64,000 nucleotides of DNA from Bacteriovoracia bacterium (GTDB lineage Bacteria > Bdellovibrionota > UBA1018 > CAIPTA01): assembly GCA_050246755.1 (NCBI GenBank), contig JBFWVL010000001.1:352001-416000 (forward strand), in the 5' to 3' direction. Positions 1,506 through 12,549 of the stretch are shown here, in pieces; position 1 is the first letter of the stretch, and the number at the start of each line of letters is the position of its first letter. The translations under genes and the position numbers were made by a program. The notes under the pieces are model-generated. The model worked only from the letters and a program-made list of their open reading frames with translations. It was not told the DNA's origin and ran no database searches.

Positions 1506-2288
1506 CTATTTAGCGAGAAACTCCACCTTACCCAATTGATCGAACGTGGCACTCACCGTATCGCCCGCACGAAAAGCCACGGCCGCGGTGGCGCCGCCCG
1601 CGAGCACGATGGATCCGGCCGGCAAAGATTCGCCCATGGCGCCCAGTAGCTTCACGAGCTCCAGCAGCGAAAGCAGGGGATTCCCCAGAATGGCGGCCGA
1701 AGACCCCTTTTGCGCGGCCGCTCCATTTTTTTCGAGCGTGATACCGATATTTTTTAGTTCGAGTTCCCCCGGTTTTTTCCTTACCGTACCGAGCACGAAG
1801 GCCGAGGAGGAGCAGTTGTCGGCCACCACGTCGGGCAGGGCGAAATCAAAATTCTCGAAACGAGAATCAATCACTTCGATCGCCCCGCATACGCTCTCGA
1901 TCGCCGCAATGGCTTCGGCTTCGGAAGGATTGCCATGCAGCTCTTTACCCATCACGAAGGCAATCTCGGGTTCGGCCTTAGGATGAATTCTTCTTCCGAG
2001 CGTGAGCGTCGCGCCGCTCGCTATTTGCATGCGGTCGGTGAGGAAGCCGTGGATAGGGCTATCAATTCCCATTTGCTCCATCTTGGGCTTGGAGGTCATT
2101 CCCATCTTGCGGCCAACGATCCGCGCGCCGCCTTTGAGGTGAAGGGCCATGAGCAAGCGCTGCACTTCGTAGCCCTGACCGAGCGAAAAACTCGGCTCTT
2201 CCACCGTAAACTTAATTACGGACTTTCCCGTTTGCTCCGCCGCGAACAATATTCCCGCGATTTCTTGCGCCTTCATTCTATTCTCCAA
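1506..2288 (-). CDS. dmpH: 4-oxalocrotonate decarboxylase (FAH superfamily; DmpH/AmnE-like)
   Basis: GRKMGMTSKPKMEQMG, IHPKAEPEIAF, EVIDSRF..F.F.LPDVVADNCSS, GSSAAILGNP, GGATAA. Confidence 0.88.
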   Translation of the reverse strand: MENRMKAQEIAGILFAAEQTGKSVIKFTVEEPSFSLGQGYEVQRLLMALHLKGGARIVGRKMGMTSKPKMEQMGIDSPIHGFLTDRMQIASGATLTLGRRIHPKAEPEIAFVMGKELHGNPSEAEAIAAIESVCGAIEVIDSRFENFDFALPDVVADNCSSSAFVLGTVRKKPGELELKNIGITLEKNGAAAQKGSSAAILGNPLLSLLELVKLLGAMGESLPAGSIVLAGGATAAVAFRAGDTVSATFDQLGKVEFLAK

Positions 2289-3057
2289 AAAAACAGTGCA
2301 CGTTTCCGAGACCAGCGATTTCCACGTCTACCCTATCGCCCGCCTTCACCGGCATCACCGGCCCAAAGGCGCCGGAAAGAATCACTTCACCGGCTTTCAG
2401 TGCCACCCCGAATTTTCCGAGCGCATTCGCAAGCCAGGCCACCGCCAGGCAAGGGTGATCGAGGCAAGCCGCGCCGGTGCCGGTGGAAAGAATTTCCCCG
2501 TTAATTTTCAGGCTCATCTTGGCGAGGGTTAAATCCAGGGAGGAAAGCGAATGCTTTTCCGTGCCCAGCACAAAGTGCGAAGAAGAGGCGTTGTCGGCGA
2601 TCGTGTCCTGGATCTTGATTTTCCAGTCGCGCACGCGGGAATCAATGATCTCGATCGAGGGAAGAATATAGTCCGTTGCGTGGATCACATCCTGCATCGT
2701 TATGCCGGGGCCTATCAAGTCGCTCTTGAGCACGAAGGCCACCTCGCCCTCCACCCGGGGCAAAAGGAGCTTGGCGCGGGAAAGGCTTCCGCCCGAGGAA
2801 ATCTTCATGTCGGAAGTGAGGTAGCCGAAATCGGGCTCTTCCACGCCCAATTGTTTCTGCACTGCCCTAGAAGTAAGGCCGATTTTCTTCCCCACGAGGG
2901 TCAGGCCTTCTTGCTCGAGGCGGCGCTTGAGGTTAATCTCGGACACGGAGTAGGCGTTGCCGATCGTGATTCCGGGAAACTGGGCGGTGAGCGGTTCCAC
3001 CGGCGAGGCCGAGAGGCGGGCCTGAAAAAGGGCGTCAGCTAAGGAAGTAAGATTCAT
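2278..3057 (-). CDS. mhpD: 2-keto-4-pentenoate hydratase (MhpD/AmnF-like)
   Basis: GKKIGLTSRAVQKQLGVEEPDFG, PRVEGEVAF, EIIDSRVRDWKIKIQDTIADNASS, GAACLDHP; overlaps the dmpH start. Confidence 0.92.
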   Translation of the reverse strand: MNLTSLADALFQARLSASPVEPLTAQFPGITIGNAYSVSEINLKRRLEQEGLTLVGKKIGLTSRAVQKQLGVEEPDFGYLTSDMKISSGGSLSRAKLLLPRVEGEVAFVLKSDLIGPGITMQDVIHATDYILPSIEIIDSRVRDWKIKIQDTIADNASSSHFVLGTEKHSLSSLDLTLAKMSLKINGEILSTGTGAACLDHPCLAVAWLANALGKFGVALKAGEVILSGAFGPVMPVKAGDRVDVEIAGLGNVHCFFGE

Positions 3058-3065
3058 CTTCCCCC

Positions 3066-3094
3066 ACTCTAGTGTCAGGCCAGCGTGATTTCAA
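3066..3094 (-). promoter_or_regulatory. sigma70-like promoter for mhpD-dmpH (near-leaderless)
   Basis: Minus strand TTGAAA-N17-TAGAGT, ending 8 nt before ATG 3057. Confidence 0.6.
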
Positions 3095-3107
3095 GAAGGG
3101 ATACTCG

Positions 3108-3977
3108 ATGTCGAAATACGACAACTTGGAGCTGAAAGAACTGAACTATAACTCCTACCTCAAGGTGCCCGAATTGCTCGGCCTCCAAAAAGAGCTTTCC
3201 GACCCCGCCCACCACGACGAAATGTTCTTCATCATCATCCACCAGGCCGCCGAGCTCTGGTTCAAGCAAATGCGCCACGAAACGGCTGGCCTCATCGAGG
3301 ATTTCCGCGCCAATTCCGTTTCCCGGGCCTTGAAAAAATTCCGTCGCCTCGTGGGCATTATGGATCTGATGGTGAAGCAGATCAATTTGCTAAACACCCT
3401 CACACCCGTGGAGTTCGCGGGCTTCCGCGATAACCTCCGCCCCGCTTCCGGCTTCCAGTCCATCCAGTTCCGCGTGATCGAGTTCGCCTATGGCATCCGC
3501 GAAGCTTTTTTCCTGGAATTTTTCGCCAAAGAAAAATCCATGCAGAGCCAGCTGCAAGACCTACTCAAAGAACCGAGCGTGCACGATGAGTTCGTGCGCC
3601 TGCTAAGCCGCTCCGGCTTCAAGATTCCGGAGTCCCTACTGAATCGCGACGTGAGCCTGCCGTGGACCGAATCTCCCGAGCTCATCGCCACGATCAAGAC
3701 GATCTACGAGAATCCCCAGGAAAATTACCATTGGGTTCTGCTCTTCGAGACCATGCTCGACTTCGACGAAAAATTCGCCGTCTGGCGCTCCGTGCATATG
3801 CTCATGGTGGCGCGCACGATCGGCATGAAGGCCGGCACCGGCGGCAGCTCGGGCCACGCCTTCCTCGCAGGCCGCGCTGGCCTGAGATTCTTCCCCGAGC
3901 TCTGGAGCGTGCGCACGGAAGTGGGCGGCGGATACGGGAATGCCGGGGCGGCCACTCCCGGGAAATGCCCGGTTTAA
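3108..3977 (+). CDS. kynA: Tryptophan 2,3-dioxygenase
   Basis: HHDEMFFIIIHQAAELWFK, FRDNLRPASGFQSIQFR, RTIGMKAGTGGSSG, FFPELW; ATG 3108 follows AAGAAGGGA. Confidence 0.96.
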   Translation: MSKYDNLELKELNYNSYLKVPELLGLQKELSDPAHHDEMFFIIIHQAAELWFKQMRHETAGLIEDFRANSVSRALKKFRRLVGIMDLMVKQINLLNTLTPVEFAGFRDNLRPASGFQSIQFRVIEFAYGIREAFFLEFFAKEKSMQSQLQDLLKEPSVHDEFVRLLSRSGFKIPESLLNRDVSLPWTESPELIATIKTIYENPQENYHWVLLFETMLDFDEKFAVWRSVHMLMVARTIGMKAGTGGSSGHAFLAGRAGLRFFPELWSVRTEVGGGYGNAGAATPGKCPV

Positions 3978-3981
3978 TAGC

Positions 3982-5166
3982 ATGCGCTTCGACGTTTTCT
4001 TCTCCATCTGCCAAACTCCCGTGAACGGCTATACGCCCTCGGAACGCGTGATGTTCGAGAATTTTTTCTCCCAGGCCGAGCTCGCCGATCAACTCGGCGT
4101 GGGCACCGCCTGGGTGGCCGAAACCCACCTCTCCTGCCAGACCCAAAAAGAAAATCCCGGCGCGGTGGTGCCCCACTTCGAGGGCGAGATCGGCCTCAAT
4201 ACCGACGTGCTCCAGGTGGCGCACCGCTTATTCGCGCGCACGAAAAAAATCCATATCGGCTCCGCCATCCGCAATATCCAGTGCAATGGCGGCCCTATCG
4301 CCCACGCCGAAGCGATCCGCATGTTTCTCTCGCTCCACGCGCTCAATCCCGGCGAGAAACGCCTTCTCGATATCGGCTTCGCTTCCGGCCGCTTTCCTTT
4401 TTCCAATACGCCCTACGGCATCCGCCCCCGCAATGAACTGGAGAAAGCCGCCTGGCCCGTGCTCAAGGGAAAGATCTTCCAGGAAGCCACCGAAATTTTC
4501 CTGCGTCTCCTCAAGGGAGAGAAGCTCGCCTCGAAGGATATTTCACCTAAAATCCTCGAGCGCAAAAATTTCCGCAGTGAGGAGGAATGGGAAAAAATCG
4601 CCAAGCTCGCCGGCGGTGCCGACAAAATCGAAGTCCCCGCTTTCTGGAATTTCGATAAAGTGGGCGTGATTCCCTTCGAAGCCCCCATGGATCTGCTGAA
4701 GCTCACCATCGGTTGCCACGATCTCGAAACCCAGATCTTCGCCAATAAATTCCTGCCCTGCGGAGTATTCAACCTCTCGATCACCCCCGCTCCCCAGATC
4801 GAAGCCACGCACCAGGCGATGCAAAAAAGCTTTCACCCCGCGGGTGGCCGTTGGACCCGCGCCCATATGCCCCGCACGGTGCTCGTATTCCTGGATAAAA
4901 ATCGCGAGAAGGCCCGTGCACGTGCCCAGGGCGCGATGGAGAATTACTGGAAAGCCATCGAGGGAACCCTTGATCCCGAGAAGATTCGCAATGCCGTGGA
5001 CAATGCCCTCGTGGGCGACGCGGCCGAAATCAAGGCGGAGCTGGAAACGCGCTTCCACCGCGACGATCGCCTCATGCTCTGGTTCGATTTCAATAACCAC
5101 GACAACGAGGAAGTGCGCTCTTCCATGCGGGAATTCATGGAAAAAGTGGCGCCGAGCCTACAGTAA
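3982..5166 (+). CDS. Luciferase-like (LLM class) flavin-dependent monooxygenase
   Basis: N-terminal MRFDVFFS...QAELADQLGVGTAWVAETHLS, TKKIHIGSAIRNI, LDIGFASG; C-terminal ALVGD...LMLWFDF...SMREFMEKVAP; starts 4 nt after the kynA stop. Confidence 0.85.
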   Translation: MRFDVFFSICQTPVNGYTPSERVMFENFFSQAELADQLGVGTAWVAETHLSCQTQKENPGAVVPHFEGEIGLNTDVLQVAHRLFARTKKIHIGSAIRNIQCNGGPIAHAEAIRMFLSLHALNPGEKRLLDIGFASGRFPFSNTPYGIRPRNELEKAAWPVLKGKIFQEATEIFLRLLKGEKLASKDISPKILERKNFRSEEEWEKIAKLAGGADKIEVPAFWNFDKVGVIPFEAPMDLLKLTIGCHDLETQIFANKFLPCGVFNLSITPAPQIEATHQAMQKSFHPAGGRWTRAHMPRTVLVFLDKNREKARARAQGAMENYWKAIEGTLDPEKIRNAVDNALVGDAAEIKAELETRFHRDDRLMLWFDFNNHDNEEVRSSMREFMEKVAPSLQ

Positions 5167-5456: not shown

Positions 5457-6155
5457 ATGACGAAAAATTGGATCTACTCGCTAAGTCTAGTTCTAGCTCT
5501 CACCGCAAACCTTGCTCTAGCCGGCGGCGCTGCCGTATCGGACCGCCTCAAATGCAATAAGGCGACCGAACTTCCCGTCAACGCAAGCGTAGACCGCGTG
5601 GTAGACGGCGACACCGTGATCATCCGCGTCCCCACCGGCACCTACTCGGTGCGCATGATGGGCATCGATACCCCCGAAACTCACTTCATGGGCAAGAGCC
5701 AGGGCGAATGGGGCGATAAAGCCGCCGAACTCCTCTCCGACCTACTCCCCGTAGGCACCAAGGTTCGCCTCGAGTACACCGCGGAATCCTGCGATGCGCA
5801 CGGGCGCCTGCTCGCCCACGTATTCAAAGGCAAGCTGCACACGAATGCCGAAATGGTGAAGCAAGGCCTCGCCGCCAACTATTGCGTAGCCCCCAGCTTC
5901 GAGTATTGCCGCGAAATCGGAAACCACGTGGCCAACGCCATTAAATACCGCCTGGGTATGTTCGCCGACTCCAACGCCGAGCTTCCCTATGATTTCCGCC
6001 GCCGCATTGGTGGCAACGAGCAGCGCTCTTTCGTGGGCAATCTCTCCACGAAAGAAGTTCTTACTCCCGGCCACCAAGATGACGTTCCGGTTGCCGAACG
6101 CGTATTCTTCTATCGCCAGAGCGACGTGAAGGCCCCCTACTTCATCGCGAAATAA
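5457..6155 (+). CDS. Secreted thermonuclease (SNase/TNase family)
   Basis: Signal peptide; RVVDGDT, VRMMGIDTPE, DAHGRLLAHV, NAEMVKQGLA. Confidence 0.9.
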   Translation: MTKNWIYSLSLVLALTANLALAGGAAVSDRLKCNKATELPVNASVDRVVDGDTVIIRVPTGTYSVRMMGIDTPETHFMGKSQGEWGDKAAELLSDLLPVGTKVRLEYTAESCDAHGRLLAHVFKGKLHTNAEMVKQGLAANYCVAPSFEYCREIGNHVANAIKYRLGMFADSNAELPYDFRRRIGGNEQRSFVGNLSTKEVLTPGHQDDVPVAERVFFYRQSDVKAPYFIAK

Positions 6156-6172: not shown

Positions 6173-6201
6173 GCCTCTGCCTTCACGGGCAGGGGCTTTT
6201 T
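6173..6201 (+). terminator. Rho-independent terminator after the thermonuclease
   Basis: Stem-loop GCCTCTGCCT-tcac-GGGCAGGGGC followed by TTTTT. Confidence 0.75.
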
Positions 6202-6247: not shown

Positions 6248-7279
6248 ATGAGCGACCACGCTTACTCGCAAAACCAATGGGTGCCTCTCGTGGACTACCG
6301 TCGCAATGGAGTGGCTGAATGCACCATCCACGGCTCCATTGCCTGGGTTTCGGGAACCAAGCTCGTGCACGCCTTTGGCGGGGAAGTGCTCTGCTATGGC
6401 CGCTCGATGATGAAGCCCTATATGGTGAAGGTTTTCGCCAAAGAGCTCGAGGATATGAGCTGGGAACAGAAAGCCATCTCGGTGGCCTCCCATAACGGCG
6501 ACACCGAACATATCCGCGTAGTCAGCTCCGTACTTTCCGAAAGCGAGCTCGGCCTCGTGCAAACCCCGCTCGCGCTGCCGCTGATGCAATTCGGCCAGCA
6601 GCGCCGCCGCCCGCGCCGCCTCTATCATTCCTGCTCCGGCGAACACGCCGCCATCCTCCGTGGCTGCCGCGTGAAGGGCTGGAGCCGCGTTGGCTATGTG
6701 TGGCCTCACCACGAATTTTTCCTCGCCTACCTCGCCCAGGTTCGCACCGTGCTCGGCGCCGATTGGGAACCCAAAGTGATCGCCAAAGACGGTTGCGGAT
6801 TACCCACGATTTCCATGACTACCGTGGAGATGGCGCGACTTATGGCCGATCTCGTAACGAAGAGAAACGACGATTGGGTTTGGGACGCGATGGTGAAGCA
6901 CCCGGATCTCGTGGGCGGCTTCAACCGCCTCGATTCCACGATCATGAAATCCTGCGAAGGCCGCGTGATTGCCAAAGAAGGCGCCGACGGCTTGCTCGGG
7001 CTCGCAATCGAGCACCCGGACTATCCTGATGGCCTCGGGGTAGTGATCAAGATCGCCCACGGCTGGGACATGCGCGCCACCTGGTACGTAGCCCGCTACG
7101 TGCTCGGCGTTTTGGGTTTTGATTTCCGCAATCCCTACCCGCTCGAGCGGCAAAAAGCTTTTCTGGTAGAGGATTGCATCCCGCCGGCGCTAAGGCCCAA
7201 GATGGATTCGATTCAGCCCTGGGACGACTGGGATCCGGATAGAGACCGCTGGAATTTTGATTACCGGGAGTTCACTTGA
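6248..7279 (+). CDS. Asparaginase II (class 3, Rhizobium etli AnsA-type) family hydrolase with altered metal-site motif
   Basis: GRSMMKP (R-S-x-x-K), ASHNG, HSCSGEH (family usually NCSGKH), DGCGLP, IAKEGADG; stop overlaps the downstream ALDH start. Confidence 0.85.
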   Translation: MSDHAYSQNQWVPLVDYRRNGVAECTIHGSIAWVSGTKLVHAFGGEVLCYGRSMMKPYMVKVFAKELEDMSWEQKAISVASHNGDTEHIRVVSSVLSESELGLVQTPLALPLMQFGQQRRRPRRLYHSCSGEHAAILRGCRVKGWSRVGYVWPHHEFFLAYLAQVRTVLGADWEPKVIAKDGCGLPTISMTTVEMARLMADLVTKRNDDWVWDAMVKHPDLVGGFNRLDSTIMKSCEGRVIAKEGADGLLGLAIEHPDYPDGLGVVIKIAHGWDMRATWYVARYVLGVLGFDFRNPYPLERQKAFLVEDCIPPALRPKMDSIQPWDDWDPDRDRWNFDYREFT

Positions 7280-8718
7280 AATTAGCTAACTATATCGACG
7301 GCCACGAGCAGGCCCCGCTTTCGGGAAAGTATTTGCCCAACTACGCGCCCGCTACCGGCGAGATCTATTCCGAGATCCCCGATTCCAGCGCGGCAGACGT
7401 AGACCTCGCCGTGAAGGCCGCACAGAAAATTTTCCCTTGGTGGAGCCAACGCACCCCCGAGCAAAGATCCCAGGTTTTACTCTCGATTGCCGATCGAATG
7501 GAAAAATCCGTCGACGATCTCGTGAACGCCGAGAGCCGCGACCAGGGAAAACCCGTGCACCTCGCGCGCGAAATCGAAATCCCCCGCGCCATCCAAAATT
7601 TCCGCTACTTCGCCACCAAGATTTTGCACACCGAAGAAACCGCGAGGCCCTCGCAGGCCCTGAGCTCCCTCTCCTACACCTACCGCATGCCCGTGGGCGT
7701 GGCCGGATTGATCTCGCCATGGAATCTCCCGCTCTATTTGCTCACCTGGAAAATCGCGCCGGCCATCGCCGCCGGGAACACGGTGGTTTGCAAGCCCTCC
7801 GAGCTCACGCCGATGACGGCCTACCTCATGGGCGAAATCTTCAACGAGGCGGGCGTTCCCCACGGAGTGGTGAACATGGTATTCGGCCTCGGCGTCACCG
7901 CGGGCGCCGCACTCGCCGCTCACCCCGATGTGCCACTCATTTCTTTTACCGGCGGTACCGCCACCGGCCGCAAGATCCTCGAGGCCTCGATTCCGCGTTT
8001 CAAGAAAACCAGCCTCGAGCTCGGCGGAAAAAATGCGGCGCTGGTTTTTGCCGACTGCGATCTCGCCGAAGCTGTGATCACGAGCGTGCGCTCATCCTTC
8101 CAGAACCAAGGCGAAATCTGCCTCTGCAATTCCCGCATCCTGGTGGAAGAAGGCATCTACGAGAAATTCGTGGAAAAATTCGCGCGCACGGCGAGCCTCA
8201 TCCGCGTGGGCGATCCCACCCTGAAAGAAACCCAGATGGGCCCGCTCGTGAGCAAGGAGCATAAAGAAAAAGTTCTCTCCTATATCAAGCTCGCCACCGA
8301 AGAAGGCGGCACTATTCTAGGCGGCGGCACCGTCCCCCACCTCGAAGCGCCCTTCGATCAAGGCTATTTCGTAAATCCCACGATCATCACGGGCCTCGGC
8401 CCCAACTGCCGTGTGAACCAGGAAGAGATTTTTGGCCCCGTGGCCAGTATCATTCCCTTCAAAACTGAGGAGGAAGCGATTGCGATCGCGAACGGCGTGG
8501 AATACGGACTATCCGCCTCCGTTTGGACCCGCGATATTTCTCGCGCCCACCGCGTAGCCCAGGCCCTGCACGTGGGCACCACCTGGGTAAACTCCTGGAT
8601 GGTCCGCGATCTCGGCATGCCTTTCGGCGGCATGAAGCATTCCGGCCTCGGCCGCGAAGGCGGAGATCACTCGCTGAATTTTTTCAGCGAAACGAAAACC
8701 ATCAGCGTGAAGATATGA
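7276..8718 (+). CDS. amnC: 2-aminomuconic/2-hydroxymuconic semialdehyde dehydrogenase (ALDH8A1/AmnC-like)
   Basis: EIPRAIQNFRYFA, GLISPWNLPLYLLTWKIAPA, SLELGGKN, NQGEICLC, QEEIFGPV, VRDLGMPFGGMKHSG. Confidence 0.9.
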   Translation: MKLANYIDGHEQAPLSGKYLPNYAPATGEIYSEIPDSSAADVDLAVKAAQKIFPWWSQRTPEQRSQVLLSIADRMEKSVDDLVNAESRDQGKPVHLAREIEIPRAIQNFRYFATKILHTEETARPSQALSSLSYTYRMPVGVAGLISPWNLPLYLLTWKIAPAIAAGNTVVCKPSELTPMTAYLMGEIFNEAGVPHGVVNMVFGLGVTAGAALAAHPDVPLISFTGGTATGRKILEASIPRFKKTSLELGGKNAALVFADCDLAEAVITSVRSSFQNQGEICLCNSRILVEEGIYEKFVEKFARTASLIRVGDPTLKETQMGPLVSKEHKEKVLSYIKLATEEGGTILGGGTVPHLEAPFDQGYFVNPTIITGLGPNCRVNQEEIFGPVASIIPFKTEEEAIAIANGVEYGLSASVWTRDISRAHRVAQALHVGTTWVNSWMVRDLGMPFGGMKHSGLGREGGDHSLNFFSETKTISVKI

Positions 8719-9233
8719 AGCTCTTCCTGCTTTTCTTAATTCCTCTTTTTGCCTTCGCCAAGCCCGCGGCACGCAAATCCAAGGCGCCGCCCAAACGCGT
8801 AGCCACGAAGATCACTTCGGGCAAACAGGTTTGCGATATGGTGAAAAAATTCACCACCGCCGGGTTTCCCGCCCAGACCAATATCGATTTCGCCGTGGGG
8901 AAAAAGTTCGTGGCCGAAGGAAAGCTCGGCGCCATCGACAAAAATATCGGCACCTTCCATTTAGCCAATCTCTACCTGCGCGCCATCGCCAAGGGCGAGG
9001 AGGGCCTCACCTATAAAGAGGGCTGCCTAAAAATCAATTTCCCCGACCTCGATAAGGATGGGATTAAGGACCTCGAGCTCTCCGTGACGATGGAGCGACT
9101 CGACCCCAAAGCGAATCCTAAAGTGGTGAGCACCGTGAACTACGAACGCACGTTCATCTACCATCCGGAACAGAAAATCTACGAGCCCATGACCGGCTCC
9201 CCTCACCCCTTCGTGGAGCTCGTGATCAAGTGA
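8715..9233 (+). CDS. Secreted hypothetical protein
   Basis: ATGA overlap with the ALDH stop; signal peptide MKLFLLFLIPLFAFA; one DLDKDGIKDL (FG-GAP-like) motif. Confidence 0.7.
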   Translation: MKLFLLFLIPLFAFAKPAARKSKAPPKRVATKITSGKQVCDMVKKFTTAGFPAQTNIDFAVGKKFVAEGKLGAIDKNIGTFHLANLYLRAIAKGEEGLTYKEGCLKINFPDLDKDGIKDLELSVTMERLDPKANPKVVSTVNYERTFIYHPEQKIYEPMTGSPHPFVELVIK

Positions 9234-9610
9234 AACAGGTGATCCTGATCCGCCGCGATCTCAATATGCGCCGGGGAAAAGAAATCGCGCAGGGGTCACA
9301 CGCCTCGATGGGATTTCTGATCGAGCAATTGCGGGCGCAGATGCCTTCTTCGGAGGCTTCGGTCACTCTCGACGCGGCCACGCAGGAATGGATTCAGTTC
9401 GGCATGGGAAAGATTTGCCTGCAGGTTACGAGCGAAGCGGATTTGCTTAGCTTCCACGCGAAGGCGAAGGCCGCCGGAGTGTATAGTTTTTTGGTGAGGG
9501 ATAGTGGCCGCACGGAATTTCACGGCGAACCTACCTATACCGCCTGCGCGATCGGGCCCGATACGGCCGAGAGAATCGATGCAATCACGGGTGAGCTGAA
9601 CTTGTATTGA
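9230..9610 (+). CDS. pth2: Peptidyl-tRNA hydrolase, Pth2 type
   Basis: KQVILIRRDLNMRRGKEIAQGSHAS, KICLQV, VRDSGRTEF, TACAIGP, IDAITGELNL. Confidence 0.88.
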   Translation: MKQVILIRRDLNMRRGKEIAQGSHASMGFLIEQLRAQMPSSEASVTLDAATQEWIQFGMGKICLQVTSEADLLSFHAKAKAAGVYSFLVRDSGRTEFHGEPTYTACAIGPDTAERIDAITGELNLY

Positions 9611-9704: not shown

Positions 9705-11913
<2,209 letters not shown>

Positions 11914-11917
<4 letters not shown>

Positions 11918-12549
11918 AGATTTGGGACATCAGCCCGGTGATTTCCGAGAAGACGGCCGTATTTCCCGGCGACGTGCCTTTTTCCCGCGAAGTTTCGATG
12001 GACACGAAAAAAGGCCACCACCTCACCCTCTCGGCCATTCGTTCCACGCTGCATATCGGCGCGCACGCCGACGCCGGCAATCATTATCATAAAGAGGGAA
12101 AAGGCGTGGAGGCGCGGCCCCTCGAATCCTACCTGGGCGACTGTGAAGTGATCGCCGTAAAGCTTCCCCGTGGTGCCCGTATCGGAATCGAGCATTTGAA
12201 CGGAAGAATCCCGCTCGCCCCCCGCGTGCTCTTCAAAACAAATTCTTTTCCCGATCCCGATCAATGGAACAATGATTTCAATTCTCTCTCGCCCGAGCTG
12301 ATCGAGTTCCTCGCCGACCGCGGCGCTATGCTCGTGGGTATCGACACTCCGAGCGTAGATCCCGTGGATTCCAAAGCCCTCGAAAGCCACCAGGCGCTGC
12401 ACCGCAGAAATCTCGCCGTGCTCGAGGGAATCACGCTGGAACAGGTAACGGAAGGCGTGTACACCCTGGTCGCTTTGCCGCTGCGAATGAAAGACGCTGA
12501 CGCTTCGCCGGTTCGTGCTATCCTTATAAACAAAGAAACGTTGTTGTGA
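11914..12549 (+). CDS. kynB: Kynurenine formamidase (metal-dependent cyclase family)
   Basis: WDISP....AVFPGD, HIGAHADA, RVLFKT, LVGIDTPSVDP, LEG, ALPLR...DASPVRAIL. Confidence 0.92.

Follow-up and report, generated by a model that had tools for sequence, protein, structure and literature searches.

Class 3 L-asparaginases (Pfam family PF06089) are known from two Rhizobium etli enzymes, ReAIV and ReAV (PDB 8cly/8ori, 7os3/7os5 and 9g66), and have been studied mainly as drug leads; the family is large, and only one function has been assigned to it so far. We analysed a stretch of 64,000 nucleotides from a Bacteriovoracia bacterium of the Bdellovibrionota (assembly GCA_050246755.1, contig JBFWVL010000001.1, positions 352,001 to 416,000; hereafter the window), in which positions 6248 to 7279 encode a protein, P0001, with the fold of ReAIV and ReAV. 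The two Ser-Lys tandems, the Arg, the Tyr/His/Asp set and both zinc cysteines are common to these proteins, as probably is the beta-aspartyl-enzyme mechanism, whereas a Lys-to-Glu exchange at the zinc site, an Asp at the counterpart of ReAV Cys249, 64 clade-specific positions and a structured Trp/Asp tail set the window protein apart. While ReAIV and ReAV stand alone, the window gene is locked to a tryptophan/2-aminophenol gene set, and its presumed leaving group is an aminophenol, not ammonia. The hydrolase belongs specifically to a kynA/kynB/oxygenase/amn gene set and is not an ordinary stand-alone asparaginase. With evenly divided confidence, we propose that it splits a beta-aspartyl aryl ester or anilide, the Baeyer-Villiger product of (N-formyl)kynurenine, into L-aspartate and 2-aminophenol; the further proposition, that hydrolase and luciferase-like oxygenase jointly replace kynureninase in a two-enzyme bypass and so constitute a third major way of catabolising tryptophan, we regard as evenly balanced.

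A comparable logic is known from the HapE/HapD pair of Pseudomonas fluorescens ACB, which takes 4-hydroxyacetophenone by Baeyer-Villiger oxygenation to an aryl ester and on to a phenol and an acid. The two steps proposed here would follow the same plan with other families at both of them, a luciferase-like oxygenase and an asparaginase-fold hydrolase, and the acid released would be an amino acid and the phenol an aminophenol. The classical kynurenine route (kynureninase, TIGR01814; KMO; 3-hydroxyanthranilate dioxygenase, 3-HAO; ACMSD) occupies the same metabolic place, in that it removes the kynurenine side chain and feeds an aminophenolic ring to cleavage, and the two routes would converge on 2-aminomuconic semialdehyde. 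Kynureninase and the window hydrolase are not homologous: the former has the fold of pyridoxal 5'-phosphate-dependent class V aminotransferases, and P0001 matches PF06089 only. Kynureninase performs a pyridoxal phosphate-assisted C-C cleavage, and the classical products are alanine and 3-hydroxyanthranilate, whereas the proposed route would hydrolyse an ester or amide after oxygen insertion and yield aspartate and 2-aminophenol. The window's two-subunit LigB dioxygenase, semialdehyde dehydrogenase, Rid deaminase, decarboxylase and hydratase belong to the families found in the amn/nbz/cnb clusters for meta-cleavage of 2-aminophenol; to our knowledge, those clusters of nitroaromatic degraders contain no PF06089 protein, no kynA or kynB and no luciferase-like oxygenase, and here, by contrast, the aminophenol would derive from tryptophan. 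A literature search, whose coverage mostly leaves out subscription journals, returned no paper that describes a conversion of kynurenine to 2-aminophenol or places a PF06089 protein in the catabolism of tryptophan; the pathway around the hydrolase is apparently undescribed, and the hydrolase itself would be a new functional variant of a known fold.

Fold and active site of the hydrolase

The open reading frame (ORF; 6248-7279, + strand) starts with ATG, ends with a TGA stop at 7277-7279 and encodes 343 amino acids. The product matches PF06089 (Asparaginase_II) over residues 15-293 with 167.5 bits (cut-off 25; E 4.8e-49), and 1729 of 3679 candidates were homologous to it at E<=1e-3, which together identify the ORF as a real gene and not a chance reading frame; an NCBIfam search with the protein matched no model. 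The following features were assigned to it:

6248..7279, + strand: gene of an asparaginase-II-like serine hydrolase with class 3 fold, P0001 (ORF, PF06089)
6401..6415, + strand: R52-S53-M-M-K56 (RSMMK, residues 52-56), alpha-carboxylate Arg, nucleophile Ser and its Lys, corresponding to ReAV Arg47, Ser48 and Lys51 (alignment)
6485..6499, + strand: A-S81-H-N-G (ASHNG, residues 80-84), second catalytic Ser, corresponding to ReAV Ser80 (alignment)
6626..6646, + strand: H-S-C129-S-G-E132-H133 (HSCSGEH, residues 127-133), metal-site segment with Glu replacing the ReAV ligand Lys138 (alignment)
6785..6799, + strand: K-D181-G-C183-G (KDGCG, residues 180-184), equivalents of ReAV Asp187 and Cys189 (alignment)
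6974..6991, + strand: K243-E-G-A-D-G (KEGADG, residues 243-248), second catalytic Lys, corresponding to ReAV Lys263, and oxyanion-hole strand (alignment)
7217..7276, + strand: signature tail of the tight subfamily at the C-terminus, rich in Trp and Asp, residues 324-343 (conservation)

An earlier reading of the DNA from sequence alone (the sequence-only reading) had described the RSMMK, ASH, DGC and K-x-G-A-D-G motifs as retained, and all of them were found in the translation and in a HMMER alignment to ReAIV (8cly), where RSMMK pairs with RSACK, ASHNG with ASHNG, DGC with DGC and KEGADG with KTGAEG. The exchange of the family's NCSGKH segment for HSCSGEH, also described there, was confirmed by the same alignment, in which HSCSGEH lies on NNCSGKH; the reported Trp/Asp-rich tail (residues 324-343, 3 Trp and 6 Asp) and the 4-nt overlap with amnC (TTGA at 7276-7279) are present as well.

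Statements on ReAV are taken from the accessible parts of the papers cited. Its catalytic residues are Ser48, Lys51, Ser80 and Lys263, and its zinc ligands Cys135, Lys138 and Cys189 (PMC8602277); Arg47 is the residue that binds the alpha-carboxylate, and a conserved pattern includes Tyr156, His139 and Asp187 (PMC12292245, where roles of the motif residues are also described), and the oxyanion hole is described in PMC12951835. In the window protein, ReAV 'Pattern II' (two Ser-Lys tandems plus Arg47) is present as R52, S53, K56, S81 and K243; among 100 aligned family members, S53, K56, S81, D181, K243 and G245 are invariant and R52 occurs in at least 90%. The counterparts of Arg47, Tyr156, His139 and Asp187 are kept as R52, Y150, H133 and D181, which fits a beta-aspartyl acyl group with an L-alpha-amino acid head and a beta-carbonyl. 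The Cys-Lys-Cys zinc site ('Pattern I') is absent as such: C129 and C183 are kept and Lys138 is replaced by Glu132 which, when the three ReAV ligands are set against the aligned residues, is the sole zinc ligand changed. Residues F225 and N226 immediately precede the residue aligned with the cysteine of the ReAIV GRAC segment, an Asp in the window protein; we take this cysteine to correspond to ReAV Cys249, at a distance of about 5 Å from the nucleophile (PMC8602277).

An AlphaFold model computed from a 100-sequence alignment reached a predicted local distance difference test (pLDDT) of 95.1 and a predicted template modelling score of 0.92, with mean pLDDT values for 10-residue blocks of 89-98 from residue 291 to the C-terminus and of 89-90 in those covering residues 321-343. 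The best Foldseek matches were ReAIV/ReAV only (E about 1e-19, template modelling score 0.72-0.75), followed at E about 1e-3 by beta-lactamases, 6-aminohexanoate-dimer hydrolase and glutaminase. The tail, P324-T343 (PWDDWDPDRDRWNFDYREFT), has 3 Trp and 6 Asp in 20 residues and contains the pattern W-D-x-W-D-P-D-x-D-x-W at residues 325-335; among 51 sequences of the subfamily, 94-100% share D326, W328, D329, P330, D331, D333 and W335, positions at which at least 92% of 24 canonical-type sequences have gaps. The clade has 64 positions at which at least 90% of the 51 members agree and the 24 canonical members differ. Aromatic residues among them are W33, F63, F115, Y126, Y161, W173, W210, W212, F225, W273, W279, F291, Y297, W328 and W335, and it is a suggestion only that such clade-specific aromatics may form a pocket for the leaving group. 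A predicted complex of oxygenase and hydrolase scored 0.00 ('no answer') and is evidence for neither side.

Clade, zinc site and gene linkage

In a 90%-clustered database, the 120 best hits of the window protein are 65-86% identical to it and come from Acidobacteriota, Planctomycetota, Sericytochromatia and Bdellovibrionota, compared with only 20-24% identity for ReAIV/ReAV. In a 140-member tree, the context-linked unfused sequences form a single clade of 46 tips (43 loci and 3 database representatives; support 0.99 SH-like in FastTree and 96.3 aLRT) that includes the window protein. Its members are 59-87% identical across phyla, and its branches are short, with tips on average 0.51 apart compared with 1.74 in the clade of fused proteins described below. 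Sister clades at 35-48% identity mostly have Cys-Lys-Cys at the metal site, and a metagenome scan seeded with them returned almost only loci of the tight clade. In the ESM Atlas, PF06089 clusters were confirmed, with Bdellovibrionota and Thermoplasmatota as the commonest taxa.

The metal triple varies across 55 column-aligned loci, while R52, S53, K56, S81 and K243 are constant wherever the sequence is present. Cys-Glu-Cys is found in the query's group, Acidobacteriota and Sericytochromatia, Cys-Lys-Cys in L089, Cys-Gln-Cys in L107, and Ser-His-Asp in 18 loci of the clade and in L108. The fetched regions of L089, L107, L108 and 10 of the 18 Ser-His-Asp loci contain the oxygenase; seven of the other eight adjoin LigB genes, and L019 is solitary. 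The 120 closest database proteins read xCSGEH in 84 cases and xC(S/A)GKH in 34, with the motif unmatched in 2 and exact HSCSGEH in 9. Among 80 metagenome loci, found with a search pattern that is blind to Ser-His-Asp forms, there are 73 Cys-Glu-Cys and 6 Cys-Lys-Cys triples (all 6 adjoining the oxygenase), with 1 unparsed. In a sample of 50%-identity representatives, Glu at this site is confined to the superclade that contains the linked sequences, and the canonical NNCSGKH group has Lys and, once, Gln. SCSGEH was therefore rejected as a functional marker, as same-context orthologues carry Cys-Glu-Cys, Cys-Lys-Cys, Ser-His-Asp or Cys-Gln-Cys, and the check proposed in the sequence-only reading, whether it tracks kynA/amn neighbourhoods, gave a negative answer. 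The zinc site is plastic within one orthologous group, where Glu is the commonest state and does not define the job; the function is marked by clade and gene context, not by the zinc motif. In ReAV, the metal anchors the alpha-amino and alpha-carboxy groups of the substrate (PMC12951835, citing Pokrywka 2025), and with the K138A exchange kcat falls from 416 to 4.8 per second (PMC11024299).

Of 20 GTDB loci from isolate-level genomes, 14 have amnC downstream of the hydrolase gene and 10 have the oxygenase in the flanking region. Of the 80 metagenome loci, 70 have a flanking oxygenase, several of the other 10 being cut off on that side, and all 80 have at least one of oxygenase, amnC and LigB; classical-pathway genes were found in the flanks of none of the 80. 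Co-occurrence was counted in 301 genomes drawn evenly from the window's phylum and in a sample of 251 genomes of Cyanobacteriota, and is given as counts and not as probabilities because related genomes are not independent. In the phylum sample, match scores to the clade are bimodal (27 genomes at E<=3.5e-120, the next best at 6.4e-62), and all 27 clade-bearing genomes have the oxygenase (E<=1.9e-135). The oxygenase occurs in 47 of the 301 genomes, 45 of which have some PF06089 homologue; where this homologue is divergent (18 genomes), both genes are on one contig and at most 7 kb apart in 17. By contrast, 3-HAO is over the cut-off in 62 of the 301 genomes, none of which is among the 47 with oxygenase or the 27 with a clade member, and 55 of these 62 have no PF06089 homologue at E<=1e-20. 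In the Cyanobacteriota sample, the clade is present in 5 genomes, the oxygenase in 5 and both in 4, in which the two genes are megabases apart or on separate contigs; 137 of the 251 genomes have a canonical-type homologue only (E 1e-21 to 1e-31). The evidence places the proposed bypass in Bdellovibrionota, Acidobacteriota and Sericytochromatia, and in every genome searched it excludes the 3-hydroxyanthranilate route. Planctomycetota, from a database name, and marine archaea, from Atlas cluster labels, are unchecked leads.

Gene cluster and genome

The window genes around the hydrolase are listed below, with names given by family and not as proven identities because most NCBIfam matches fall below the equivalog cut-offs:

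820-1395 and 2-787, - strand: two ORFs downstream of the dmpH-like gene, with no Pfam or NCBIfam match
1506-2288, - strand: dmpH-like decarboxylase of the lower meta-cleavage pathway, divergently transcribed (TIGR03218, 244 bits, below cut-off)
2278-3057, - strand: dmpE-like hydratase of the lower meta-cleavage pathway, divergently transcribed (TIGR03220, 323 bits, below cut-off)
3072..3977, + strand: tryptophan 2,3-dioxygenase, kynA (PF03301, E 1.7e-52; TIGR03036, 274 bits, below the cut-off of 390.7)
3982..5166, + strand: divergent luciferase-like flavin oxygenase, the proposed partner that would make the hydrolase substrate (PF00296, E 9.6e-8)
5457..6155, + strand: staphylococcal-nuclease-like gene between oxygenase and hydrolase (PF00565, E 3.4e-16)
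6173-6196: strong terminator-like hairpin after the nuclease-like gene (hairpin search)
7276..8718, + strand: amnC-like 2-aminomuconic/2-hydroxymuconic semialdehyde dehydrogenase, overlapping the hydrolase gene by TTGA (PF00171, E 6e-169; TIGR03216, 575 bits, below the cut-off of 693)
about 8760-9233, + strand: small ORF between amnC and the first LigB gene, without family match
9230-9610, + strand: homologue of PTH2-type peptidyl-tRNA hydrolase, between amnC and the first LigB gene (family match)
9738..10646, + strand: LigB-family subunit (AmnB-like) of an extradiol aminophenol dioxygenase (PF02900, E 5e-27)
10412..11917, + strand: second subunit of the LigB family, joined in a single ORF to a Rid-family deaminase (PF02900, PF01042)
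11914..12549, + strand: arylformamidase, kynB (TIGR03035, 206.8 bits, cut-off 223; PF04199)

The amnC-like ORF starts with TTG at 7276, five bases downstream of GGGAG (7266-7270), and this start is supported because homologues align from residue 1 or 2. Orthologues of the AmnB-like subunit, 57-84% identical, are found beside the hydrolase in other phyla. The LigB-Rid ORF probably starts later than 10412; other lineages (L090-L105) have a free-standing Rid gene that follows the hydrolase gene, in place of the LigB fusion of the window. Insertion of the nuclease-like gene, which splits the operon in this lineage, is seen only in the closest relatives, L002-L005, and the PTH2-type homologue is an odd neighbour for a catabolic operon. 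For the second of the two unmatched minus-strand ORFs (2-787), L002 and L006 have counterparts of 32-41% identity in the same place. No lower-pathway aldolase or acetaldehyde dehydrogenase was seen in the window cluster.

The window's genome (G000, 95.7% complete) lacks any match to kynureninase (PF22580, TIGR01814) and to 3-HAO, and the best match to a KMO-like query from a relative scored only 18.5 bits. It has a second PF06089 gene on contig 6 (129678-130556; L120:5604-6626), with the motifs NNCSGKH, DGCGIP and KVGAEG and the unrelated neighbours PhoH, PilZ and MscL; this paralogue scores 338 bits against PF06089, compared with 167 for the window copy, and the two are 27% identical. Since neither a class 1 nor a class 2 asparaginase was found in G000, the contig 6 paralogue is probably its real asparaginase. 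A look-up of sequencing runs listed 5 and no RNA data set, and so speaks neither for nor against expression.

Several loci of the family are arranged differently. PF06089 is fused to KynB arylformamidase (PF04199) in proteins of 498-544 amino acids (L109-L119, for example L113:9214-10815 and L118:9806-11404, and P0130). Families f17 and f27 belong here, with a PF06089 domain 27-35% identical to the query and a total length of 511-544 residues, usually in the order oxygenase, fusion, kynA; P0130 is a second such fusion from a different part of the family tree. In family f17, a module of oxygenase and two LigB genes and a module of 3-HAO, ACMSD and kynureninase swap at the same operon position. 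Four f17 loci (L109, L113, L117 and L118) have genes for IMP dehydrogenase and GMP synthase directly upstream and a sigma-54 response regulator beside the operon, an arrangement that is conserved across several genera and hints at nitrogen-regulated expression. An oxygenase-only variant is found in L115 (G270:C6:12500-32499), where kynA, oxygenase and kynB stand together amid housekeeping genes; no LigB, 3-HAO or kynureninase gene was found in this genome.

Proposed pathway and competing explanations

From the conserved gene set we infer the chemistry of the oxygenase, the substrate of the hydrolase and with them every chemical step that follows. KynA and KynB would provide (N-formyl)kynurenine, and the luciferase-like oxygenase would place an oxygen atom, in a Baeyer-Villiger reaction, between the aromatic ring and the carbonyl of the side chain. 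Type II Baeyer-Villiger enzymes belong to the luciferase-like family, and oxygen insertion beside an electron-rich aryl ring leads to an aryl ester, which here would be the beta-(2-aminophenyl) ester of L-aspartate. This ester should shift its acyl group to the neighbouring amine unless the amine is formylated, so that it may rearrange to N4-(2-hydroxyphenyl)-L-asparagine. The hydrolase, a cytoplasmic serine hydrolase with unchanged catalytic apparatus (Ser53, Lys56, Ser81, Lys243 and Arg52), would have been recruited as second step of a kynureninase-independent route: it would form the beta-aspartyl-Ser intermediate as an asparaginase does, and expel an aminophenol rather than ammonia. Products would be L-aspartate and 2-aminophenol, or 2-formamidophenol, which KynB would then deformylate. 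The 2-aminophenol would be opened by the AmnAB-like dioxygenase, and AmnC, the Rid deaminase and the DmpH/DmpE-like enzymes would complete the breakdown. As in asparagine, the scissile carbonyl would have to lie two carbons from the head group of an L-alpha-amino acid, and the only intermediates between kynurenine and 2-aminophenol that would fit are kynurenine, its N-formyl form and their Baeyer-Villiger products.

Such a route would explain the mutual exclusion of oxygenase and 3-HAO, the tracking of the oxygenase by the hydrolase, the separate canonical asparaginase in the genome, and why ACMSD is not needed. The function of a beta-aspartyl arylamidase or esterase, to which the sequence-only reading had come, survives as the most economical job, while the part of its argument that rested on SCSGEH falls because the motif varies within the same context. 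The KynB fusions tie the PF06089 family to kynurenine metabolism, and the fusion suggests that hydrolase and formamidase may act one after another.

Several observations weigh against the proposed pathway. Six of the 20 GTDB loci have unrelated neighbours (four from Sericytochromatia/Cyanobacteriota, one from Acidobacteriota and one other); of five of these genomes, four have a 63-66% identical oxygenase elsewhere, and no oxygenase was seen in the fifth, G002, in which contig numbers run to 343 or more. Conversely, G270 (98% complete) has kynA, oxygenase and kynB and no PF06089 homologue at E<=1e-20, and G196 (73% complete) is a second oxygenase genome of this kind. The Baeyer-Villiger activity of the oxygenase is itself presumed. 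Hydrolysis of L-asparagine by the window protein is possible, and its sequence is compatible with it because the active site is nearly identical to that of ReAV except for Lys138 to Glu and Cys249 to Asp. Finally, the fusion clade occurs in genomes with the full classical set (3-HAO, ACMSD, kynureninase and a KMO-like gene) and no oxygenase (G018, G096, G180, G135 and G067). In G096 and G180, 3-HAO, ACMSD and kynureninase are directly beside the fusion; G018 has 3-HAO, an ACMSD-like gene and kynureninase (444 bits, over the cut-off), with a KMO-like oxygenase on another contig, and kynureninase and 3-HAO are present in G018, G096 and G135. No LigB gene was found in the fusion cluster of these last three; the single LigB-family match of G096 lies on a different contig. 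All catalytic residues are retained in the fused domain of classical-pathway genomes, including G067, and this domain has diverged relative to the KynB domain no more than in oxygenase-bearing genomes; omega for the asparaginase-like domain is about 0.125 between L113 and L114, with dS saturated. A view of the fused domain as a relic in these genomes was not adopted, given the intact catalytic residues and the unrelaxed divergence. Because an intact, unrelaxed domain persists in genomes without oxygenase, the distant fused clade has a function that does not need this enzyme, and a promiscuous enzyme for L-asparagine and other beta-aspartyl compounds would fit it because the acyl-enzyme would be identical.

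Extended to the window protein, these points would make it a KynA/KynB-linked hydrolase that is independent of the oxygenase, for example a promiscuous asparaginase or beta-aspartyl hydrolase that scavenges nitrogen, with the oxygenase product as a secondary substrate or none. The persistence of intact fusions in oxygenase-less classical genomes, the sigma-54 activators that adjoin fusion operons and an active site nearly identical to that of ReAV all speak for this explanation. We nevertheless regard it as unlikely, since the unfused clade is always accompanied by the oxygenase (27 of 27) and never by 3-HAO (0 of 27) in the phylum sample, PF06089 is missing at the above threshold from 55 of 62 3-HAO genomes, and G000 already has a canonical paralogue; moreover, genus g111 has a plain unfused KynB of 211-227 residues, so that the domain is dispensable in the classical context.

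A C-C hydrolase would lead to identical products with the same gene set: the oxygenase would hydroxylate C3 of kynurenine, and the hydrolase would cleave 3-hydroxykynurenine in a retro-Friedel-Crafts reaction to 2-aminophenol and aspartate. Kynurenine, as the aryl-ketone analogue of asparagine, would fit an asparagine site, and G000 has no KMO-like gene above the weak match given. This scheme needs two new chemistries instead of one, however; we know of no Ser-Lys hydrolase of this fold that breaks C-C bonds and of no luciferase-like oxygenase that acts as an aromatic hydroxylase, and we consider it distinctly improbable.

An ordinary L-asparaginase that stands in the operon by chance would account for PF06089 membership, the complete catalytic tetrad and the name 'asparaginase' that databases give to relatives. 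In orthologues of the same context, however, both zinc cysteines are replaced (Ser-His-Asp), and in ReAV the exchanges C135A and C189A abolish hydrolysis of L-asparagine (PMC11024299). With a canonical paralogue elsewhere in G000 and linkage and co-occurrence with oxygenase and amn genes conserved over several phyla, chance placement of such an enzyme is very improbable. Least probable of all is an amidohydrolase of the lower pathway, such as a 2-aminomuconate deaminase (an amidase-type one exists in Comamonas) or a scavenger of a side product like a picolinate-type amide: translational coupling to amnC would suit it, but a Rid-family deaminase is already encoded in every cluster, 55 of the 62 classical-route genomes, which share the lower pathway, lack a PF06089 homologue, and the gene follows the oxygenase and not the lower pathway.

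For the family, the results mean that a large and highly conserved branch of PF06089 belongs to tryptophan catabolism, which gives this branch a concrete candidate substrate class, and that the zinc site, regarded as a hallmark of the class, is plastic among orthologues of one clade, which bears on the debated role of the metal. If the proposed two-enzyme bypass is true, its substrate would be the first physiological one other than asparagine for class 3 asparaginases, and the hydrolase would supply the enzyme missing from a widespread and undescribed path that leads from kynurenine to 2-aminophenol. The bypass would then link a natural substrate to 'pollutant-type' genes for aminophenol ring cleavage, and would explain how many uncultured bacteria use tryptophan without kynureninase, KMO and 3-HAO.

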